This document shows, piece by piece, positions 1 to 11,890 of a stretch of DNA of 44,612 nucleotides. Below the pieces are notes generated by a model, which was not told the DNA's origin, did not search any database, and saw only the letters and a program-made list of their open reading frames with translations. How positions within the stretch are numbered: position 1 is the first letter of the stretch; each line of letters begins with the position of its first letter. Source of the DNA: a virus (taxonomy: Duplodnaviria; Heunggongvirae; Uroviricota; Caudoviricetes); IMG/VR virus record IMGVR_UViG_3300024303_000028, positions 1 through 44,612 of that record. The stretch is one strand, 5' to 3'. A program made the translations under genes and the position numbers.

Positions 1-109
1 GGTGGGTTGCGCTGTCCGGCTGTGCCGTGTGGCGCGTCCGGGGCGGCGTGTCCGCTTCCCCTTCCGCCTGTATAGCGGCGGGGGTGGGGTGGGTTGCGCT
101 GTCCGGCTG
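1..109 (+). repeat. 22-bp exact direct repeat GGTGGGTTGCGCTGTCCGGCTG (1-22 and 88-109)
   Basis: Read directly; the core TGTCCGGCTG recurs at ~150-159 and ~1650-1659; may extend left of the window. Confidence 0.85.
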
Positions 110-120
110 GATATATGACC

Positions 121-154
121 AAACAGAAAAGGACAGCCCCGCGCGGGGCTGTCC
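121..154 (-). terminator. Rho-independent terminator of the minus-strand HTH gene
   Basis: Perfect 10-bp stem GGACAGCCCC-gcgc-GGGGCTGTCC (131-154) with an A-tract at 121-130 (U-tract on the minus strand), just past the TAA at 169. Confidence 0.8.
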
Positions 155-168
155 GGCTGATTATTAGG

Positions 169-1389
169 TTATGCATTCGCGGCGGCACGTTCCGCCTTCT
201 TGCGGGCGCGGTACTCGCGATAATATGCGGCGTTGTGCGCGGCCTTGTGCGCGGCCTTGCCCGCCTCTGTCCGGCGGCTGTCCGCGCCCCTATCGTGCGC
301 GGCGGCGGCTGTACGCTCATCGGCGGCGGCTGTGTACTTGTCAGCGTTGAACATAGGAAGCAGGGTTGGCGCGTGTTCGCGGATGTATTCCGCGCACGTC
401 CCGCGCATGATAGCAATATTCCGGCATACTGTGCGGCGGTCGCGTCCGGTTTTGCGGGCGATTGCGTCCACACTATACCCGGCGGCAAGCAAGCGGGCAA
501 TTTCACGTTGCACAGGGCGGCACAGGGCAAGGGCGCGGGGCAGGTGTTCGCGGATTGTCTCCACGTTGACGCGCACGGCGGGCGGGCAGTCGGTCAGCGT
601 CCAGCCGTCGCCGCCCTTGATAATGCGGGCAATAGCCGTGCCGATTGCTATCAAGTCGCCGCCGTCCTCCCGAATGTATTCCGTGGACATTTCGCGCACA
701 GTCGCGGCCCGCTGTGCATGTATGGACAGATTCGCGGACAGATAAGCGGCGCGGACGTGTTCGCGGGGCGTTCCTTCCGGGTCAGCCGTCCCGCGCAGGT
801 GTTCGCCCGCATGCTTGCCCTTTTCAAAGGTGTAACCGTTGACGATACCCGCCATGGCGGCGGCGTACATGTCTTGCGCGTCATGTCCGGCAGTTGCAAG
901 GGCGGCAAGGATAGCGGGGGCGGCGGCCTCCCATTCCATGCCCGCAACGTCATAACGCACAGCGGCGGCGTTCACCCGGTCAAGGTCGGCAAGGGCGGCG
1001 CGCTGTGTATCCGTCCCGCCGTGTTCGCATGCATGCACAAGCGTTTTCCGCGCAACCATGACGGCGGCGCGAATCATGCCGGGGGCATAGGGCAAGCCGT
1101 CCGGGGTCAGCGTTGCGGGGGCAACGCGCACAGCGGCGGCAAGGGCGGCACGTCCGGCGGCGTTGACACGTTCGCGGACATGGTCAGCGGGGGCGGCGGT
1201 CAGCGTGTCCAGCATGGCGGCGTGTACGTCACGCATAGCGGCGGGGTCAGCCTTGACGGCGGCGCGGATAGCGGCGCGGCGTACAGCCCGCATAGCGGCG
1301 GCGTGTCCCCCATTGGCAAGGGCGGCGGCGTACAGGTCAGCGGCGGGCAGGGTAACAGAGGCGCGGGCGGTGTTGGCATTGTACAGCAT
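169..1389 (-). CDS. Ala-rich putative sigma-70-like / LuxR-type HTH transcription factor (406 aa)
   Basis: SD GGAGGAA on the minus strand at ~1398-1404; C-terminal region-4-like HTH (PVQREIARLLAAGYSVDAIARKTGRDRRTVCRNI); DAQDMYAAAMAGI resembles sigma region 2; own terminator downstream. Confidence 0.6.
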   Translation of the reverse strand: MLYNANTARASVTLPAADLYAAALANGGHAAAMRAVRRAAIRAAVKADPAAMRDVHAAMLDTLTAAPADHVRERVNAAGRAALAAAVRVAPATLTPDGLPYAPGMIRAAVMVARKTLVHACEHGGTDTQRAALADLDRVNAAAVRYDVAGMEWEAAAPAILAALATAGHDAQDMYAAAMAGIVNGYTFEKGKHAGEHLRGTADPEGTPREHVRAAYLSANLSIHAQRAATVREMSTEYIREDGGDLIAIGTAIARIIKGGDGWTLTDCPPAVRVNVETIREHLPRALALCRPVQREIARLLAAGYSVDAIARKTGRDRRTVCRNIAIMRGTCAEYIREHAPTLLPMFNADKYTAAADERTAAAAHDRGADSRRTEAGKAAHKAAHNAAYYREYRARKKAERAAANA

Positions 1390-1419
1390 GGGTGTTCCTT
1401 CCTCCCCACATGGGCGGGG

Positions 1420-1480
1420 ATACCGGGTATTATGTCAGCCCCCGGCGGCTGTATTCATCCCCGGTTTGCATACCGGGTAT
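1420..1480. promoter_or_regulatory. Two identical palindromic boxes ATACCGGGTAT (1420-1430, 1470-1480), candidate operators
   Basis: ATACC-G-GGTAT palindrome present twice, 50 bp apart, directly upstream of the HTH gene start. Confidence 0.5.
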
Positions 1481-1522
1481 ACCCTGTATATTCGACATAC
1501 ACCCGCCGTTTTCCTGCTTGTC

Positions 1523-1704
1523 CCTGCAAAAATTTGTCTTAAATTTTCGCATAAAATGCAGGAATGCCCCTGCAATCCTGCAAAATCGCCAGGATGAACC
1601 ACAGCGGCCACAAATGCCCTAAAAAGCCCCCTGTAAGCTCTTGCAGGCATGTCCGGCTGTATCTGTCGGCCGTCCTGCAAAACGGCTGTAAAGGGCCTTG
1701 CAGG
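1523..1704. repeat. Cluster of CCTGCAA heptamers in both orientations
   Basis: Exact copies on + at 1523, 1569, 1577, 1674 and on - at 1641, 1698; near-copies at 1557(-) and 1630(+). Confidence 0.8.
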
Positions 1705-1970
1705 CCGTCCCAGGGTACAACATACGCGCCATTGTAACGACTTGCATTTTTCAATGAAGGGAAACGGTCTGCCGCATGTGTCCAGCGCGGAAATGGTGAA
1801 GGGACACGGATAACGCCTGTGCGGTTTTTCAATATCTGCTGTGATGGTTCGCAGCTGACAAGGTGAAAGGGAAGGAAAGAGGGGGAGAAGGGGGAAAAGA
1901 GGGGGAAAACGGCTGACAGGTTTTTGAATAACCGTTGATAGGGTGTATATATACGCATGGTTGCAGCCGT

Positions 1971-2075
1971 CGCCCCTGCCCACGTTCGCCCCTTGTCTAT
2001 GCCCCTGCCGCCGTCCGTCCGTCCATGTGTCCCCCTGCCGCCGTCCGTCTATGTGGTATTTTGCCCCTATGCCAC
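1971..2075 (+). repeat. Degenerate ~30-bp tandem repeat (GCCCCTGCCGCCGTCCGTCYATGTG-like), ~4 units
   Basis: CCCCTGCC at 1973, 2002, 2032 and a degenerate unit at ~2063; 18-bp exact copy at 2002-2019 and 2032-2049. Confidence 0.75.
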
Positions 2076-2365
2076 AAAGGGGGGTGTTTTCCATATTTTG
2101 ACGCCCCCTGCCACGCGCCACGAGCCGGGAGTTGTTCACTCTCCCACACCCACTTCCCTCACCTCCCTCCCTGGCGTTCTCTTCCATCTTCTCATATTTT
2201 GCTCATTATTTGTCTCAACAAATTTTGATTACTCCCCTTTAATTTGCAAGTTTGGTTATGAAGCTTGCATTTTCCGAATTAGCAAAATGCAGATTTATAC
2301 CCCATTTCATCCTGGCTATTATCCATTTTCTACATTAAGAGTGTAATAATTATTTAACTTTTACA

Positions 2366-2394
2366 TTGATTTACATGGTGTTTTGTGATATAAT
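2366..2394 (+). promoter_or_regulatory. Host sigmaA/sigma70-type promoter with extended -10
   Basis: TTGATT (2366-2371), 17-bp spacer, TG at 2386-2387, TATAAT (2389-2394); AT-rich upstream region. Confidence 0.8.
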
Positions 2395-2441
2395 TCATAG
2401 TGTCAAAACCAACCGTTTTCCCGATTGCCAAGGAGGTACTT

Positions 2442-3251
2442 ATGGCAGAGATCATCCAAGTAGACTTTACGACAGGCCGGCGGATGGCCACCACGGAAAC
2501 CCCCAGCATGGGTATGCCTATCAGGCGTACTCTCTCTGCTGAGCAGCTCTCTCCCGCAGAGTCCTGTGTCCAGAGCGAACTGGCTGAAGACCATGCTGCT
2601 GATCCCATCAAGAACGTAGAGGACATCGAACGCCTCTCTCAGCACCTGATTTCTCAGAACCGCTACCGCGACAACATGCTCTTCATCGTGGGCATTAACC
2701 TCGGCCTTCGCGTTTCCGATCTGGTCACTCTCCGGTTCTCAGATCTGATCGATGAGAGCTACGCCTTCAAGACTACCTTCCCGGTTCTGGAGAAGAAAAC
2801 GAAGAACACCCGTAAGGCAAAGCGTAACCGCTACCTGACGATCAATGAGGCAATTATGGATGCGGTAGAACTCTACCTGAGTCACCACCCGGCGAAACTC
2901 GATGACTATATGTTCAAGAGTGAGAGCAACCGAGGTGGTAACCAGAACAGGCCACTGGCGACCTACTCAGTGGAACGCATCCTGAAGAAGGCTGCCTCCG
3001 AGATCGGGCTCGAATGCCATGTGGCTACGCACACGCTCCGTAAGACCTTCGGCTATCACCAGATGGCGATGGGAGGGAACGACCCCCGCAGGCTTCTGCT
3101 CCTGCAAAAGATCTTCGGTCACTCTTCTGTAGCGCAGACTCTCGAATACATCGGAATCACCGATGAGGAAATCGAGGATGCGTACAGGGGATTGAACCTC
3201 GGTAGCAAGAAGTGCTACTCCAAGTTCTCCGCTATCCGAGAGATCGGTTAA
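2442..3251 (+). CDS. Tyrosine recombinase/integrase family protein (269 aa)
   Basis: SD AAGGAGG 2430-2436 favours ATG 2442 over the track start at 2400; catalytic motifs GLRVSDL, HTLRKTF, FGHSS, TLEYIG. Confidence 0.92.
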   Translation: MAEIIQVDFTTGRRMATTETPSMGMPIRRTLSAEQLSPAESCVQSELAEDHAADPIKNVEDIERLSQHLISQNRYRDNMLFIVGINLGLRVSDLVTLRFSDLIDESYAFKTTFPVLEKKTKNTRKAKRNRYLTINEAIMDAVELYLSHHPAKLDDYMFKSESNRGGNQNRPLATYSVERILKKAASEIGLECHVATHTLRKTFGYHQMAMGGNDPRRLLLLQKIFGHSSVAQTLEYIGITDEEIEDAYRGLNLGSKKCYSKFSAIREIG

Positions 3252-3597
3252 GAGAAGTATGCACCTTGAAAACTTCAGAGATATTATGGAAGGAAGTTAC
3301 CCCCAGAGCAACCAACGCGAGGACGCCTGACAGATGACCAGTAAGGTCAGGCCGAGCGTGGGCTATGCGAGTAGCGGAATTCCGAGAACGCGAAGCACCT
3401 TTTACTACACTGGTCACTTGGATAAAGCCAATCCGGTCTGGATGGTATGGATCTGTGGACGATCGGAGGGCTGTCAAGTAGCAACGGAGTTAGAGTGTTA
3501 GGTCTATTTTCACATTTGAAATAAAGGGTGTGTGTATTATAAGGCCCCTTTCCTACACCCCTTGATTTTACTGGGTTTGCAGACTTGAAAATCCAAT

Positions 3598-3630
3598 TTT
3601 AGCACCAAAAATATGCGACTTGGTGCTAAA
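3598..3630. promoter_or_regulatory. 11-11-11 inverted repeat TTTAGCACCAA-N11-TTGGTGCTAAA, candidate protein-binding or recombination site
   Basis: Perfect 11-bp arms, overlapped by the imperfect direct repeat AAATCCA(A/G)TTTTA at 3589-3601 and 3628-3640. Confidence 0.6.
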
Positions 3631-3695
3631 TCCAGTTTTACTAAACAGACTAACACTTATACTAAACTTTCAACTAGGTTTAAGGGGGTATCATT

Positions 3696-4967
3696 ATTAT
3701 CAGGGTTTGCGATGCCATTATGGGCACCGGCAAGAGTCAAAGCGCAATCGCTTATATGAATGCGCACCCCAATGATAGGTTTATCTATATTTCTCCTTTT
3801 CAATCTGAGGCGAACCGCATTGCGACTAACTGTCCAGAGCTGGACTTTGTGGAGCCGCTTGACCGCAAGCCTCAGTACCAGTATACGAAAACTGGCCATA
3901 CGAGACACTTGTTGCTGGAGGGGCGGAACATCGCCTCCACACATCAGTGCTTTAAGTTCTATACGCCCGATATGTTGGAGATGATTACCAAGCAAGGCTA
4001 CACGCTGATCATCGATGAGAACGTCACGACGATCGACAGCTTCGTGTATCATCCTGATGATTTGGAGATCGCTGTTCGTGGCGGTCTGCTTCGCGAGGAT
4101 GGCGACACCTATACTGTTACTGATGTAGAGTACGCCGGTGTCGCACTCGCACAGATGATGCGTTTATTCAAATCACGCAATCTATTCAAACACAAGGTGA
4201 AGGGTGGCAGAGAAGCCGTTTGGTTCTGGTCACTACCCGTCGACCTCCTGACTGCCTTTAAGGACGTCTTCATTCTAACGTATATGTTTGAGGGACAGGA
4301 TCTGCATCAACACCTGACGATGAACGGTCTCCACTATCAGAAGATAGGTGTGAGGCGCACGCAGGAGGGTGGATGGGAGTTCGCCGAGTCGGACTTCTAC
4401 ATCCCGGAGTATGTCGGTACGCTGTCCCAGCACATACATATTTGTGACCATAGTAAATTGAATAGCATTGGGGACGATGAATCGTCTCTCTCTATGAACT
4501 GGTTTAAGACCAGACCTGACCAAGTCGATAAGCTGGCTAATAACATCAGCAACTATTTCCGCAATCTGATGAGCGACTTTGAAAGTGACGTCCGGCTCTG
4601 GTCTACCTATAAGAATGAGATTGCAAAGCTAAGGCAGAAGGGCTTCTACAGATCACATCTGCCCTTTAACCACCGCGCATCGAACGAATACCGTAATCGA
4701 AGGGTACTGGTGTATGCTGTGAATGTCTACTACAATGTAGAGACCAAGCGATTCCTGAAGCATCATGGTGCCGAGGTTAACGAGGATCAATATGCACTCT
4801 CGACCATGTTACAGTGGATCTGGCGATCCGCGATCCGTGATGGCGAGGATATTTATATCTATATTCCCAGCAGCCGTATGCGCCGACTCCTGACTGAATG
4901 GATTAAAGACGTCGAGAAGCAGTACAAGGAGTACGCAGAACGAAACATTAGAAAGGAGGAACGCTGA
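3696..4967 (+). CDS. Compact SF2 (DEAD/DEAH-like) helicase/ATPase; probable non-AUG (ATT) start
   Basis: Walker A MGTGKS, Walker B LIIDE, C-terminal LQWIWRSAIR; in-frame IRVCDAI precedes ATG 3720, bounded by TAA at 3681; SD-like AAGGGGGT at 3682-3689. Confidence 0.75.
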   Translation: MIRVCDAIMGTGKSQSAIAYMNAHPNDRFIYISPFQSEANRIATNCPELDFVEPLDRKPQYQYTKTGHTRHLLLEGRNIASTHQCFKFYTPDMLEMITKQGYTLIIDENVTTIDSFVYHPDDLEIAVRGGLLREDGDTYTVTDVEYAGVALAQMMRLFKSRNLFKHKVKGGREAVWFWSLPVDLLTAFKDVFILTYMFEGQDLHQHLTMNGLHYQKIGVRRTQEGGWEFAESDFYIPEYVGTLSQHIHICDHSKLNSIGDDESSLSMNWFKTRPDQVDKLANNISNYFRNLMSDFESDVRLWSTYKNEIAKLRQKGFYRSHLPFNHRASNEYRNRRVLVYAVNVYYNVETKRFLKHHGAEVNEDQYALSTMLQWIWRSAIRDGEDIYIYIPSSRMRRLLTEWIKDVEKQYKEYAERNIRKEER

Positions 4968-5155
4968 TGCTAAATCCGCAATGTGCAACATGCATCTGGA
5001 GTGGTCAGTGCTTTTCAGCTTCTTGCTGTGACGACTACTATCCAACCACACCCGAGGCCGAGGAATCAGTCGACAGTGAGATGCTGGCACGACATCGCGC
5101 CGAGTATCATGAAGACTGGAATGAGGCGGTTGAGCGCCGTATATTTTTTGCCTAA
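4967..5155 (+). CDS. Small Cys-rich, acidic hypothetical protein (62 aa)
   Basis: SD AAAGGAGG upstream; start overlaps helicase stop (TGATG); CxxC-x5-C-x4-CC. Confidence 0.75.
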   Translation: MLNPQCATCIWSGQCFSASCCDDYYPTTPEAEESVDSEMLARHRAEYHEDWNEAVERRIFFA

Positions 5156-5191
5156 CCTAAACCAGCAGTTTTTCAGATTGGAGGTAGATTG

Positions 5192-7939
5192 ATGGCAAAA
5201 CAGCAAGCTCCCCACCGGTATATTTTTAAGATTCATAGCACCCGCCTCAGGAAGGCGAAGTGGAACCTGACACTAACGCTGCCAGATGCTCGCCGCAATG
5301 ACGAGATGATCGCACTGAATGAGAGCCAGATGATCCGATGGATCGATGAGCTCAACCAGTCTGGTAACTTGGTGGAAGAGGTTAACAAGCTAAAGCAGGA
5401 TATTCGTTTCCTGCGCAAACAGCCATCTACCCTGCAGAATCGCAAGGAGATCAAGCGGCTGTACGGTGAGCTGGACTCAAAGCAGTTCATCACCGACTAT
5501 ATACATATTATTATCGATAAGAACAGCGACTACATGCGAGCCTGTAAGGGATTCAGGGTCAATGGTGTTTCCTACGTCCGTTTGCTCGGCACGAGTGGCG
5601 GCGTTAAAATGTCGACCATTGTTTTTGTGAGCGAGAGGCTCGCGCCCGAGTTGCGTAAGCGTATTGACAATGGACGCGATATGAACCTGGAGCAGATCCC
5701 TGCCAAGTTCGAGGCATACAGAGCATTGACCTGCAGCGGATCTATCCCTGTGTCGATGCCGAATGGCGTTCTGATCGTCCAAGACTGTGAGACCACTTTC
5801 CATGAAGACGTCATCATGTTGAATGATGAGGGGCGTGTGGAGCCTCTGATGGAAGTGATAAAGAATCATGAGATCAAGATGAATGCGTCAGACGGCTTCG
5901 GTCTCATGCTCCCGTCCCTCGCTACTCGCTGGTCAGATGAGTTACATTTGGACTATGTAGTGAGTGGCGTTAATACTCGCTTCGCATGGGAGAAGGGTAT
6001 GGTATTCTGCTTCGACTTCTTAGCTTTTGCAGAGAAGATTGCCGGCGATTACATTGTGAAGGATGCCTGGGGCAACGATGTAGATATCCGTACTGTGGAG
6101 CTTATTCTGACGACATCGATGGTAAAGCTGTGGTCAAGCTATGAGAGTGCGGAACATTATTTCCGCTGTTGCGCCGAAAACCACTATACGTTCGGCATTG
6201 CTAAGACGAGTCCGCGGGTGCTAGACGATTACCGCGCACTCAATTATCAGTTTATCCAGAGCTATGACCTGACCGATGAACAGATCGATGAGCTGATCCA
6301 GCCTACCGTTGACGAGATTCGTGCTGTCGTTAATGGAGATTATCGACAGGCTATGCTGTTTCTGGGTGCAACAAATCTGACAGAAGAGACAGTTGAGCAG
6401 CAACTCGGCCGCACCCAGCTATTGGATACGCTGATGGTGAATCCGGAAGCGTTCAACGATCCGTATGTCAAAAAGACGCTCTATCAGTTGATCGAGTCCC
6501 GCATCGATCGTGCGAAGATTGGCGTGCTGGATGTTCATGGGAACTATTCCATTGTTAGTGGCGATCCGTATGCGTTATGCCAGAGTGTGTTTGGTTTGGA
6601 TGTTACGGGTCTGCTAAAGGCGGGACAGCTCTACAATCGTTATTGGGTTGATGATGGAGTTACTGAGGTGGCATGCTTCCGTGCGCCGATGTCTTGCCAC
6701 AATAATGTGCGCCGGCTTAGTGTATTTCATAATGAACAGATCGACTACTGGTATCAGTACATCCGCACCTGTTCGATTTTGAATGCGTGGGATACAACGA
6801 CCGCTGCTCTGAATGGCTGTGACTTCGACGGCGACTTGTTGTTTATCACAGACAACAAGGTCTTGGTAGAAAATATCCGGCCGACACTTACTGTTATGTG
6901 TGTCCAGCGAAAGGGTACGAAATGCGTGCCAACCGAAGATGATCTGGTGAAGGCTAATATCGCCAGCTTCGGAGACGATATTGGCCGGACGACGAACTGG
7001 GTTACTTCTATGTATGATGTTCAGTCGAGGTACTCGCGGGGCAGCGTGGCACATGATACGTTGCAGTATCGCATTATTAGTGGACAGCTTTATCAGCAGA
7101 ACGCGATCGATAAGGCTAAGGGTATTGTCTGTCAGCCCATGCCGCGGTCTTGGTACGACTATCACGGCAATGCGCTGCCCGAGAATTATAGCGACGAGGA
7201 TGTGGAGCAGCGTAATCTGTATCTGTCTATCCTTGCTGACAAGAAGCCGTATTTTATGCGCTACATCTACCCGGACCTGATGAAGCAGTACAATACATAT
7301 ATTACCAATACAAATGCGAAGTGCGGTATGCTTTTCAGAATGAATGTAGAGGATATGCAGGCATTGCCTGATGATCAGCTGACAGAGGAGCAACGACAAT
7401 TTCTTCATTATTACCGCACCCGTATGCCTGTGAGTCTTGAAGATAGCGTCATGAATCGCATCTGTAAGAAGATCGAGCGTACTCTTTCCGTAGACCTCAA
7501 GGCTTGCATGGGTAAGTCTCAGTTCGACAACAATCTGCTGAGCAGCAATAGCGAGTATGTACAAAGTCAGATGCTCCAAATCACACAGCTATATAAGCAG
7601 TATAAACAGGCCGTGAAAGAATTATTGTCGAAGCGAATCACTAGCAGTGACGATGAGGATCGCCGGCGTAATGCTCAGGAGTTACTGAAGCGCCAGTTCC
7701 GCATTGATGCCTTGTCTGTATGTAGTGATGCACAGCAACTGTGTAGCATTATTGTCGATATGTGTTATAAGCATGAATCCGCTAAACGCTTCGCGTGGGA
7801 TATCTGCGGATCTGAGATGCTGGATAATTTATTCCGCGCCGGTGGGTACAGGCTGACTTATCCTGCGAGTAGCCCCGATGGCGAGCTCAGCTTTCGCGGG
7901 CGAAACTACACTATGGTAACAAAGGAGTGTGCTGTATGA
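5192..7939 (+). CDS. yonO: YonO-like single-subunit DNA-dependent RNA polymerase (double-psi beta-barrel)
   Basis: Catalytic GCDFDGD (DFDGD at 6821-6835), upstream FRAP motif, downstream AIDKAKG; ~915 aa; position ahead of head genes as in SPbeta; SD GGAGG at 5180-5184. Confidence 0.92.
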   Translation: MAKQQAPHRYIFKIHSTRLRKAKWNLTLTLPDARRNDEMIALNESQMIRWIDELNQSGNLVEEVNKLKQDIRFLRKQPSTLQNRKEIKRLYGELDSKQFITDYIHIIIDKNSDYMRACKGFRVNGVSYVRLLGTSGGVKMSTIVFVSERLAPELRKRIDNGRDMNLEQIPAKFEAYRALTCSGSIPVSMPNGVLIVQDCETTFHEDVIMLNDEGRVEPLMEVIKNHEIKMNASDGFGLMLPSLATRWSDELHLDYVVSGVNTRFAWEKGMVFCFDFLAFAEKIAGDYIVKDAWGNDVDIRTVELILTTSMVKLWSSYESAEHYFRCCAENHYTFGIAKTSPRVLDDYRALNYQFIQSYDLTDEQIDELIQPTVDEIRAVVNGDYRQAMLFLGATNLTEETVEQQLGRTQLLDTLMVNPEAFNDPYVKKTLYQLIESRIDRAKIGVLDVHGNYSIVSGDPYALCQSVFGLDVTGLLKAGQLYNRYWVDDGVTEVACFRAPMSCHNNVRRLSVFHNEQIDYWYQYIRTCSILNAWDTTTAALNGCDFDGDLLFITDNKVLVENIRPTLTVMCVQRKGTKCVPTEDDLVKANIASFGDDIGRTTNWVTSMYDVQSRYSRGSVAHDTLQYRIISGQLYQQNAIDKAKGIVCQPMPRSWYDYHGNALPENYSDEDVEQRNLYLSILADKKPYFMRYIYPDLMKQYNTYITNTNAKCGMLFRMNVEDMQALPDDQLTEEQRQFLHYYRTRMPVSLEDSVMNRICKKIERTLSVDLKACMGKSQFDNNLLSSNSEYVQSQMLQITQLYKQYKQAVKELLSKRITSSDDEDRRRNAQELLKRQFRIDALSVCSDAQQLCSIIVDMCYKHESAKRFAWDICGSEMLDNLFRAGGYRLTYPASSPDGELSFRGRNYTMVTKECAV

Positions 7940-10864: not shown

Positions 10865-11890
10865 ATGGCGAGAAAGACCAGGGTCAACAAGATCACGGAC
10901 CCTGCAACGCTGGCCAGGGTCAACCCCGATAACCAACGCTTGCTTGATGACTTTATGGAATATCTGAAGTCAACACAGAAGAGTCCATCAACGATCGCGG
11001 TTTATAAGAATGATATTGAAATCGCGTGGGTATGGGGACTTCATCATAATCGTGACAAGGCGTTTGTTGATTGGAAGAAGCGTGACATTATGTCATTCCA
11101 GAATTACTTGGTGAACGAAAATGGGAATAGCCCTGCACGAGTACGTCGAATCAAGGCTACGCTCTCATCGCTTTCAAATTTTATCGAGAATATTCTGGAT
11201 GACGAATATCCCAATTTCCGTAATATCATCCATAAGGTGGAAAGTCCCGTCCTGCAACCTGTGCGAGAAAAGACCATCCTTTCTGATGAGCAGCTACAAG
11301 GATTGCTGGATCATTTGACGGAGAAGGGCGATTATGAAAAAGCGTGCATGGTTGCTCTGGCAATGTGCTCTGGTCGACGCAAGTCCGAGCTTGTGTTGTT
11401 CAAAGTCAACTACTTTGCAGACGAGCATATTGTGTCCGGTTCTCTTTATCGCACACCAGAGAAGATCAAAACAAAGGGACGCGGTAACGGGAAATACATA
11501 CATTGCTATACATTAGCACATCAGTTCAAACCTTATTTTGATATGTGGATGAAGTATCGTCGCGAGCACGGGGTCGAGAGCGAGTGGTTATTCCCAAGCC
11601 ATGACGATATGAGCCAGCATCTATCCGTTTCATCTATGAACAGCTGGGCTCAGTCTATCTCACGATATCTGGGTGTGAGTTTCTACTGGCACTCTCTACG
11701 ACATTATACAACAACATATTTAGCCAAGGCCGGGATCCCTGATAGCGTCATCGCGCAACTTTTCTCATGGGAGAGCGTGGATATGGTCTCTGTGTACAAT
11801 GATACCACGATTGACGAAAGCCTTGACAAATATTTTAATGCCAACGGTATTGTTGCCGGTGCAACCAAAAGTGTTGCAGATTTGGCATGA
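10865..11890 (+). CDS. Tyrosine recombinase, XerC/D-like architecture with N-terminal SAM-like domain (341 aa)
   Basis: SGRRKSEL, KTKG, HSLRHY, FSW..., VSVY; SD GGAGGTG. Confidence 0.9.
   Translation: MARKTRVNKITDPATLARVNPDNQRLLDDFMEYLKSTQKSPSTIAVYKNDIEIAWVWGLHHNRDKAFVDWKKRDIMSFQNYLVNENGNSPARVRRIKATLSSLSNFIENILDDEYPNFRNIIHKVESPVLQPVREKTILSDEQLQGLLDHLTEKGDYEKACMVALAMCSGRRKSELVLFKVNYFADEHIVSGSLYRTPEKIKTKGRGNGKYIHCYTLAHQFKPYFDMWMKYRREHGVESEWLFPSHDDMSQHLSVSSMNSWAQSISRYLGVSFYWHSLRHYTTTYLAKAGIPDSVIAQLFSWESVDMVSVYNDTTIDESLDKYFNANGIVAGATKSVADLA

Follow-up and report, generated by a model that had tools for sequence, protein, structure and literature searches.

One segment of about 4 kb in this phage genome is nearly devoid of GATC and GGCC. 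Both words are plentiful elsewhere, with GATC at or above its expected number. The avoidance is kept in at least eight relatives, and its strongest signal lies in a gene for a putative sigma-like protein. Our best reading is that the segment is an early-control module of an SPbeta/Enterocloster-phage-like siphovirus. We favor, with a probability of about 0.45, the explanation that restriction sites have been purged from this module because it needs to remain uncut until protection extends to the other parts of the genome. The window, i.e. the whole stretch of 44,612 nucleotides analysed here, covers positions 1 to 44,612 of the IMG/VR record IMGVR_UViG_3300024303_000028, and the genome is the closed contig of 110,185 bp.

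GATC and GGCC in the genome

A preliminary description of the window reported no GATC in 1-2449, a first one at 2450 and about 19 in the next 2.4 kb. Our recount agrees, with 20 in 2450-4850. To the left the depletion passes the contig junction and reaches 108290, giving a GATC-poor zone of about 4.2 kb (the island) with a single GATC at 109813, vs 686 in the genome outside it, where the observed/expected ratio (O/E) of GATC is 1.17-1.34. The arm was also described as GC-rich, which is right for 1-1500 (0.64-0.70 in 250-nt windows) but not for 1500-2250, where GC is only 0.52-0.54; the genome mean is 0.475. The composition-corrected expectation for the island is 6.5-10.9 GATC instead of 27. 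Hence the reported GATC contrast is real, but about half of its magnitude is accounted for by composition; the remainder is real and specific. A maximal-order Markov model of the arm expects 2.3 GATC, so that a single genome is modest evidence.

In 4-kb sliding windows over the closed genome, both words reach their lowest level in the island, with 1 GATC vs 9.8 expected (P=6e-4) and 12 GGCC vs 35.5 expected (P=5e-6). Among the 120 ORFs of the genome, the most extreme one for both GATC and GGCC is the sigma-like gene. Zero GATC is infrequent in its codon-shuffled controls: the synonymous-codon shuffle expects 3.0 with P(0)=0.018, and genome-wide codon usage expects 6.6 with P(0)<0.0002. GGCC, which had already looked scarce with a count of 4, is expected 16.7 times, and its O/E is 0.14-0.24 in this gene vs 0.67-0.68 elsewhere. 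The codon choices pointed out earlier, i.e. GAT-AGG (289-294), TTG-ATA (649-654) and ATG-ATT (1072-1077), are all correct; Ala-Ile pairs are written GCT/GCA-ATC without exception, and GAC is used in 8 of the 9 pairs in which Asp precedes L, P, H, Q or R. The proposal that the avoidance is limited to one genome segment holds under codon-shuffled and junction-preserving controls.

When composition is taken into account, neither the non-coding flanks nor the 308-aa gene show more than a weak depletion, which counts against our preferred reading. After composition correction the intergenic region is only modestly depleted, with 13 GATC vs 18.7-27.1 expected in nine lineages, and the depletion in the 308-aa gene is not significant by codon shuffle (7 vs 8.8), all of its GATC sites being within its last third.

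Conservation in relatives

The sigma-like genes of eight lineages together contain 1 GATC vs 20.8 expected (z -5.4) and 14 GGCC vs 100.7 expected (z -11.4) under plain synonymous shuffling. When the shuffle also preserves the codon-junction dinucleotides, the expectations become 16.3 (z -5.2) and 67.3 (z -9.4), respectively, and other palindromes are near neutral. The neighbouring genes of the same lineages (41 kb) have O/E of 1.34 for GATC and 0.67 for GGCC. At 4-fold sites the identity of third positions from one lineage cluster to another is 0.36-0.59, the random value being 0.33. With synonymous sites this close to saturation, the absence of the sites has been maintained and not inherited. 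One GATC occurs within the sigma-like gene of relative L011 and two in that of L014; sites in this gene are thus survivable in some cases, which also counts against our preferred reading.

The deeper relatives differ in the words that they avoid: L014 avoids GGCC and CCGG, L015 avoids GGCC and ACGT and has 2.1 kb without GATC, and no GGCC avoidance was seen in L016. Such differences are expected if host restriction systems drive the pattern. The virulent Enterocloster phages PMBT24 and CB473P1 have 0 GATC vs 180 and 109 expected in the 72 kb and 50 kb examined. Phages of this group are hence under strong pressure from GATC restriction, which makes restriction a credible cause of the avoidance. 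These two phages belong to the same supergroup and avoid the same word, but their purge spans all of the examined DNA, whereas here it covers ~4 kb of a genome otherwise rich in GATC.

All fetched family members share the same synteny, with the sigma-like gene beside the integrase-like gene, and also with the RNA polymerase genes where the contig extends so far. Their flanks carry GATC, densely in all close relatives and at 0.9 per kb in L016. A host/prophage junction or a chimeric assembly is ruled out, since no fewer than 12 independent contigs of different samples have this synteny and four of these span the island on both sides.

The contig ends

The contig end at window position 1 is the point where the assembly, which is circular or permuted, broke within an 87-bp tandem repeat. 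The two ends of the contig overlap by an exact 97 bp, which closes it circularly, and this overlap falls inside the repeat. The remaining 3.7 copies, as assembled, are at 109863-110185 of the genome. The relatives also carry the core motif of the repeat (CCGCTATACAGGCGGAAGGGGAA-like), with copy numbers from 1 to 3 or higher. The scaffolds of L007 and L008 have N gaps at the array, the contigs of nine relatives stop 77-466 nt past the sigma-like gene, and those of L003, L008 and L009 continue across the region. A genome end at the arm is thus not supported, and the contig has no terminal repeat other than this overlap. The minimum of the cumulative GC skew is at position 1.

Organization of the island and adjoining genes

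The island is located at the point from which the two genome arms, transcribed in opposite directions, diverge. Its minus-strand order is a 1-kb control region, the sigma-like gene with its terminator, the 87-bp array, a candidate structured RNA of ~520 nt and the start of the 308-aa gene. The features in the window are listed in Table 1.

Table 1. Coordinates of the features of the island and its right flank in the window.
Feature	Position	Strand	Remarks
87-bp GC-rich tandem repeat, right-hand 1.25 copies	1..109	.	copy count as assembled only
Predicted intrinsic terminator of sigma-like gene	131..154	-	10-bp stem, 8 GC pairs, then TTTTCTGTTT; conserved in relatives
Sigma-like gene; 406-aa protein, 25% Ala, putative C-terminal sigma-70 region-4-type HTH	169..1389	-	core of the GATC/GGCC-free GC-rich segment
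Divergent intergenic region, 1.05 kb, no GATC	1390..2441	.	positional match to SPbeta yonR/yonP intergenic region
Predicted strong extended -10 sigma-70-type promoter	2366-2394		facing the + strand operon
Tyrosine-recombinase-like gene	2442..3251	+	269 aa from ATG at 2442; 283-aa ORF from GTG at 2400
YonV_C-like protein, 62-aa peptide, predicted YonO-type single-chain RNA polymerase	3720..7939	+	GATC content normal to high

The 406-aa protein probably carries a sigma-70 region 4 HTH, the domain for -35 recognition, as profile matches and a predicted structure suggest. It matches HTH_23 at residues 296-325 with 26.4 bits (cut-off 24.6), Sigma70_r4_2 is above its cut-off of 25.7 in profile-linked family members (29.4 and 27.5), and the predicted fold matches the SigL region-4 domain (3hug) with probability 0.99 and a TM score of 0.77 by target. 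Its whole-chain Foldseek matches are mostly sigma factors but weak (E 0.3-1), with nothing in the PDB at E<=0.001. For region 2, the part for core binding and -10 recognition, neither this protein nor the profile-linked family members have a Pfam match, and the motif HDAQD-x-Y-xx-A-M is region-2-like by eye only.

The gene has a GC of 0.667 (GC1 0.725, GC2 0.558, GC3 0.72), and its GC3 is shared with the capsid-like gene. An Ala/Arg/Gly-rich protein with third-position GC like that of the most GC3-rich genes of the phage does not need a foreign origin to be GC-rich, and the Ala-richness of the family extends to distant lineages. A recent import from a high-GC donor is unsupported, the GC following from the 25% Ala and the high GC3 and being kept across synonymously saturated lineages. 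The possibility that the depletion matches an unrelated host or inserted segment, raised with the preliminary description, is disfavored by this retained composition and by the conserved synteny. No similarity to the arm, the sigma-like protein, the 308-aa protein or the RNA was found among GenBank phages, and searching IMG/VR, JGI metagenome contigs and GTDB genomes at the protein level gave no match either.

The RNA candidate of the island, about 520 nt long, is conserved and structured. It fits no Rfam family at the gathering score, the sole match being a partial one to RAGATH-16 of 20.7 bits, and its 22-nt motif was not found in IMG/VR or GTDB genomes. No tRNAs were found in the last 10 kb. 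The 308-aa protein has a poor predicted fold (pLDDT 59) and no usable match in the protein atlas, and the island proteins have no informative Pfam or PHROG match. Three CCCCTGCC(G/C)... repeats with 29-30 nt spacing are at 1973-2049 in the divergent intergenic region.

The tyrosine-recombinase-like gene is the first of the + strand operon and forms the right boundary of the island, having a GATC at its fourth to fifth codon. The RNA polymerase further along is 27-38% identical to the polymerases of SPbeta, c-st and the Enterocloster phages (tblastn). Based on this similarity, on PF05183 and PF27199 annotated on the products of relatives, and on PHROG matches for the context genes, it is predicted to be a YonO/RdRP-type single-chain polymerase with YonV-like and small-peptide neighbours, as in SPbeta-like phages. 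The + strand arm that begins with this operon extends for 54 kb, co-oriented away from the island.

Search for protection genes

A methyltransferase or anti-restriction gene, which might have been expected in or near the arm, was not detected there by profiles. No methyltransferase, ArdA or TGT/DpdA family was detected genome-wide by profile, and PF08684, PF07275, PF02086, PF01555, PF00145, PF05869, PF05063 and PF01702 have no match in the genome; the results for Ocr and MT-A70 are uninformative, their positive controls having failed as well. The proteins of unassigned function remain candidates for a protection role.

Comparison with known systems

The confinement of the avoidance to one segment has parallels in T5- and T7-type phages. 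Restriction sites matter only in the first-injected DNA both in T5/BF23 (PMC10644984) and in the Autographiviridae (PMC12455610). The first-step-transfer (FST) DNA of T5/BF23 (Tequintavirus) resembles our case in that sites are tolerated across the genome except in one small segment, and in having early genes in divergent units with a long repeat-rich non-coding border (PMC10644984). However, the T5 FST is part of a terminal direct repeat (~9.7-10 kb) whose physical end is fixed, and its two-step injection has been demonstrated in experiments, whereas the contig analysed here has no long terminal repeat, and this phage is of the SPbeta-like lineage and probably packages by headful. In the T7-like Autographiviridae the location of a motif, not the count, sets the restriction sensitivity (PMC12455610), and here, too, the site-free region has the gene for a phage RNA polymerase and an extended co-oriented arm as neighbours. 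The T7-like cases differ in having Type I motifs, fixed ends and transcription-driven entry, while the words here are 4-bp Type II-like palindromes and the polymerase appears to be of the YonO type.

The pac (genome opening) region of SPbeta, between yonR and yonP, is similar in position: a divergent intergenic region of ~1 kb lies directly upstream of the small-peptide/YonO operon, with minus-strand regulatory genes on the opposite side. But SPbeta has a small Xre-like yonR instead of the sigma-like gene, repeat array and large RNA, the sequences are dissimilar, and both GATC and GGCC are at expectation in the 15 kb of SPbeta examined.

Possible explanations

In our preferred explanation, continuing selection would strip the two 4-bp restriction sites from the island only, so that the module stays uncut and can be expressed from unmodified incoming DNA, and the remaining genome with its 686 GATC sites would be protected, or be inside the cell, only later. 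The time-window logic would be the one established for T5, with its first-step-transfer DNA, and for T7-like phages, with their leading region. The data show the depletion, its specificity and conservation, its limitation to this segment, and the strength of GATC restriction in the phage group; we infer the time window itself, the early expression and the later protecting function. The position of the island agrees with this reading: SPbeta-like phages begin packaging in the divergent intergenic region that immediately precedes yonP-yonO, the records of several isolates have their first base 0.2-3.3 kb ahead of the RNA polymerase gene, and the cumulative GC skew has its minimum at position 1. 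Against it, the contig end is an assembly break, the experimentally studied relatives package by headful from a pac site and have permuted ends, and no gene that could protect the rest of the genome was recognised by profiles. Furthermore, should packaging proceed from pac toward yonO, as we read the SPbeta paper, with the DNA packaged last being the first to leave, the GATC-rich side of pac would go in ahead of the island.

The preliminary description had instead proposed a physical terminal arm that is injected first, as in the staged entry of T5 and T7, and whose products protect or pull in the remainder. This is unlikely in our judgement. Such an arm would explain why the purge is local and specific, it would have a long repeat-rich non-coding stretch beside its genes as at the FST border of T5/BF23 (PMC10644984), the orientation of the 54-kb arm is the one required for T7-like transcription-driven entry, and the pac site of relatives is at the analogous place. 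Yet the apparent direct terminal repeat is merely an overlap within a tandem repeat, the sigma-like gene is transcribed toward the array and not away from it, and no anti-restriction or modification gene was recognised by profiles in the genome. Moreover, those SPbeta-type relatives that have been characterised use pac-type headful packaging, which leaves their ends permuted (PMC11035940; bioRxiv 10.1101/2021.11.22.469490), a poor fit to one fixed first-entering arm. We also consider doubtful a related scheme for the SPbeta-like lineage, in which entry would be staged or transcription-coupled with the island leading. In it the sigma-like factor, possibly together with the large RNA candidate, would activate the YonO operon, after which the co-oriented arm would be pulled in or protected. 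To our knowledge, staged or transcription-coupled entry has so far been shown only for T5- and T7-type phages.

Another hypothesis could be that the module is a cassette recombining among many phages, some of which have lost GATC and GGCC from their whole genomes, and that its composition reflects that pool and not selection within the genomes studied here. The identity matrices of the sigma-like, integrase-like and YonV-like proteins do conflict: between L011 and L008 the integrase-like protein is 100% identical and the sigma-like protein 62-64%, and between this phage and L011 the sigma-like protein is 85% identical and YonV 50%. Relatives that are GATC-free over all examined DNA also exist. 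We still regard this hypothesis as rather unlikely, given the constant synteny with GATC-bearing flanks in every fetched family member and the lack of a high-GC donor free of GATC genome-wide in phages, IMG/VR, JGI metagenome contigs and GTDB genomes; the GC is explained by the amino-acid content and a high GC3, as in the capsid-like gene. It is improbable that the avoidance serves to shield a switch, origin, pac site or RNA gene from methylation of the Dam type (GATC) or HaeIII type (GGCC), which varies from host to host. The segment does combine a structured RNA candidate with a repeat array and a divergent control region at the GC-skew minimum, but the avoidance is strongest at synonymous sites along 1.2 kb of coding sequence and the control region is only mildly depleted. 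We know of no precedent for a methylation effect spread across a whole coding region. That the pattern is only a by-product of an extreme Ala/Arg-rich, GC-rich gene and its codon-context habits, unrelated to restriction, is largely refuted and very improbable. The low Markov expectation for the arm, the Ala-rich distant family members and the biased junction dinucleotides would agree with it; however, the depletion survives shuffles that fix the protein, the codon usage and the junction dinucleotides, the palindromes of the same composition (GCGC, CGCG and CCGG; GTAC, CATG, ACGT and TGCA) are neutral or enriched, and deeper lineages avoid other words.

Implications

Site avoidance is usually scored genome-wide, whereas here a temperate-type gut phage with 689 GATC sites purges one 4-kb control module. 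This supports the recent view that restriction sensitivity is decided by the location of the sites, and it implies some protection mechanism for the rest of the genome. The pattern offers a sequence-only route to the first-needed or first-exposed DNA of uncultured phages, for which a localised restriction-site purge would be, if staged entry is true, a marker of the first-exposed part. The putative sigma-like factor, the repeat array and the large structured RNA candidate together are a likely candidate for the early switch of a widespread group of gut phages.

GATC and GGCC depletion in one genome and its relatives

We confirmed by direct count that positions 1-2449 of the window contain no GATC; the first site lies at 2450, and 20 sites occur in 2450-4850. 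The GC richness given for this arm in the preliminary description holds for 1-1500 (GC 0.64-0.70) but not for 1500-2250 (about 0.53; genome 0.475). The window is the beginning of one single 110,185-bp virus contig, and the GATC-poor zone continues past position 1, across the contig junction, to 108290, with a single site inside at 109813. In this island of 4.25 kb with one GATC lie the two longest stretches of the genome without GATC, and 686 sites are found elsewhere. Its core is a gene for a sigma-like protein, in which every codon example cited earlier as site-dodging is correct and GGCC is scarce as claimed, with 4 occurrences. This gene is as rich in GC at third positions as the capsid-like gene (GC3 0.72), and its high GC1 and GC2 are due to its Ala, Arg and Gly content; a foreign origin is unnecessary to account for its GC richness.

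A codon-shuffled control of the sigma-like gene alone supports avoidance in part, with 3.0 GATC expected and P(0)=0.018; encoding the protein with genome-wide codon usage raises the expectation to 6.6. The gene is the most extreme of the 120 ORFs of the genome for both GATC and GGCC. The best 4-kb window is the island (GATC 1 against 9.8 expected, P=6e-4; GGCC 12 against 35.5, P=5e-6), and all ORFs other than the sigma-like gene have observed/expected ratios of 1.17 for GATC and 0.68 for GGCC, so the avoidance is limited to one segment, as had been proposed.

The statistical strength of the depletion comes from the relatives. The sigma-like homologues (55-90% protein and 59-88% nucleotide identity, same synteny) are all GC-rich (0.60-0.67), and every one lacks GATC except L011, which has one, in backgrounds of 6-8.6 GATC per kb. 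Over eight of these genes a plain synonymous shuffle gives GATC 1 against 20.8 expected (z -5.4) and GGCC 14 against 100.7 (z -11.4); with junction dinucleotides kept, the expectations are 16.3 (z -5.2) and 67.3 (z -9.4). In 41 kb of neighbouring genes from these lineages the ratios are 1.34 for GATC and 0.67 for GGCC. By codon shuffle GATC is thus over-represented outside the island, both in this genome and in these neighbouring genes (z +8.3). Between lineage clusters only 0.36-0.59 of third positions at 4-fold sites are identical, against 0.33 at random, which indicates that the absence of GATC is being maintained. The non-coding flanks are weaker, with 13 GATC upstream (18.7-27.1 expected) and 2 downstream (7.7-8.8 expected; GGCC at about 0.3 of expectation), and the GATC depletion of the 308-aa gene is not significant by codon shuffle.

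Organization of the island

Features of the island and its neighbours (L numbers denote the stretches of DNA compared here; L001 is the end of this genome, L003, L007, L008 and L016 are relatives)
Feature	Position	Strand	Remarks
308-aa gene	108128-109054		beyond the non-coding block; function not assigned
Non-coding block, about 520-600 nt	about 109060-109680 (L001:9060-9680)	minus	between repeat array and 308-aa gene
Homologous RNA blocks	L003:11440-12075, L007:3320-3960, L008:11710-12345		start also in L016
87-bp GC-rich tandem repeat array	109863-110185 and 1-109		3.7 + 1.25 copies, at least 5 copies; end overlap
Intrinsic terminator (predicted)		minus	after sigma-like gene, before repeat array
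Sigma-like gene	169-1389	minus	406-aa protein, 25% Ala
Divergent control region	1390-2441 (1.05 kb)		three phased CCCCTGCC repeats
Strong sigma-70-type promoter (predicted)	in 1390-2441		faces + strand operon
CCCCTGCC(G/C)CCGT(C/T)CG.. repeats	1973-2049		3 copies, spacing 29-30 nt
Short tyrosine-recombinase-like gene	2442-3251		other side of island
YonV_C-like gene			other side of island
62-aa peptide			other side of island
YonO-type RNA polymerase	5189-7939		other side of island; 916 aa, intact
341-aa tyrosine-recombinase-like gene	10865-11890		conventional integrase

The contig ends overlap by exactly 97 bp within the 87-bp repeat, and the "direct terminal repeat" label of the contig is based solely on this overlap. 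The same 308-aa gene follows the sigma-like gene in L003 (which lies inside a 114-kb contig), L007, L008 and L009, which confirms continuity across the junction. Given this continuity, the ends of 9 other relatives' contigs 77-466 nt past the sigma-like gene and the N gaps at the repeat in 2 scaffolds, the contig end is a break made by the assembly where the repeat array exceeds the read length, rather than a demonstrated genome end. The core motif of the repeat occurs at the same place in the relatives in 1 to 3 or more copies, and most assemblies break there. The repeats may act as iterons or as tandem promoters driving the RNA, or they may belong to a pac or stop signal.

The 406-aa protein carries a region-4-type HTH, its profile-linked relatives match Sigma70_r4_2 above the cut-off, and its weak fold matches are mostly sigma factors; it is best called sigma-like. 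The CCCCTGCC repeats look like operators, and the divergent control region of the relatives carries comparable GC-rich repeats of 22-25 nt. The shorter of the two tyrosine-recombinase-like genes (269-283 aa, 70-100% identity in relatives) heads the polymerase operon at the island boundary and could encode a YopR-like regulator instead of an integrase. The polymerase gene is in two ORFs in L005, L006, L008, L010 and L016, and in L008, L010 and L016 the pieces are separated or flanked by a gene for a GIY-YIG or HNH endonuclease; some SPbeta-like records also annotate a split polymerase (yonO_1, yonO_2). Genes lie on the + strand from 2.4 to 56 kb and mostly on the minus strand from 56 to about 100 kb. 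Cumulative GC skew is lowest at position 1, in the island, and peaks at 55,467, where the two gene arms converge.

Averaged over four lineages, the non-coding block is 78% identical; it contains numerous invariant stretches and is conserved far above the flanking proteins. RNAalifold on the four sequences predicted 155 pairs, 38 of them kept through both-side (compensatory) changes, and the predicted fold includes GNRA-type loops and a terminal hairpin. An Rfam search gave no family match, the sole hit being RAGATH-16, matched in part at 20.7 bits with GAGAUAGUGAAAAUCCC in common. We consider the block a candidate new large structured RNA of gut phages.

Possible causes of the depletion

Two virulent Enterocloster phages, PMBT24 and CB473P1, have polymerase and structural modules in common with this phage. 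The 72 kb of PMBT24 and 50 kb of CB473P1 that were examined contain no GATC (180 and 109 expected), which points to GATC-cutting systems as a strong pressure in this group of phages; both are low in CTAG and CGCG as well. In deeper relatives the synteny is kept and the avoided words partly differ: L014 avoids GGCC and CCGG, L015 avoids GGCC together with ACGT and is free of GATC over 2.1 kb, and L016 has no GGCC avoidance. These differences fit host-specific restriction. A purge of one module, with hundreds of sites persisting elsewhere, calls for a difference in exposure. In both documented precedents, the first-step-transfer DNA of T5/BF23 (PMC10644984) and the leading region of Autographiviridae (PMC12455610), only sites in the first-injected DNA matter.

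The preliminary description took the arm for a first-entering segment. That proposal is supported in part: the local, conserved depletion behind it is real, but a terminal end and a recognisable protection gene found no support. That the segment is a physical end is unlikely, as PMBT24 and SPbeta-like phages package by headful from a pac site with permuted ends (PMC11035940; bioRxiv 10.1101/2021.11.22.469490). SPbeta opens at an analogous divergent intergenic region adjoining yonP-yonO, and the records of several isolates begin just upstream of the polymerase gene, so the island is probably next to pac. However, one uncertain reading of the SPbeta paper has packaging proceed towards the polymerase operon; were DNA to leave last-in first-out, it would then be the GATC-rich side that comes first. 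A profile search of the genome matched no methyltransferase, ArdA, Ocr or TGT family, the Ocr and MT-A70 controls being also unmatched, which makes those two negatives uninformative.

Because of these limits in ends, packaging, polarity and protection genes, we prefer a weaker statement, to which we give a probability of roughly 0.45: the module would need to stay intact and be expressed before the remaining genome is protected, the order of entry being left open. Exchange of the module with purged phages, which the mosaicism among the relatives favours, is about as doubtful as the terminal arm, and insulation of the module from methylation is less likely still. Composition accounts for part of the GATC depletion (10.9 expected in the island by dinucleotide-Markov and 6.5 by maximal-order Markov models, 2.3 by the latter in the arm alone), and we regard the depletion as a mere by-product of composition as very improbable; under the junction-preserving shuffle the remaining palindromes are near neutral, and those with matching base composition occur at or above expectation.

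The depletion of GATC and GGCC is real and conserved. Such localised restriction-site avoidance is a pattern undescribed for this phage lineage in the literature searched, and at its centre here is a so far uncharacterised module that combines a sigma-like gene with a repeat array and a large candidate RNA.
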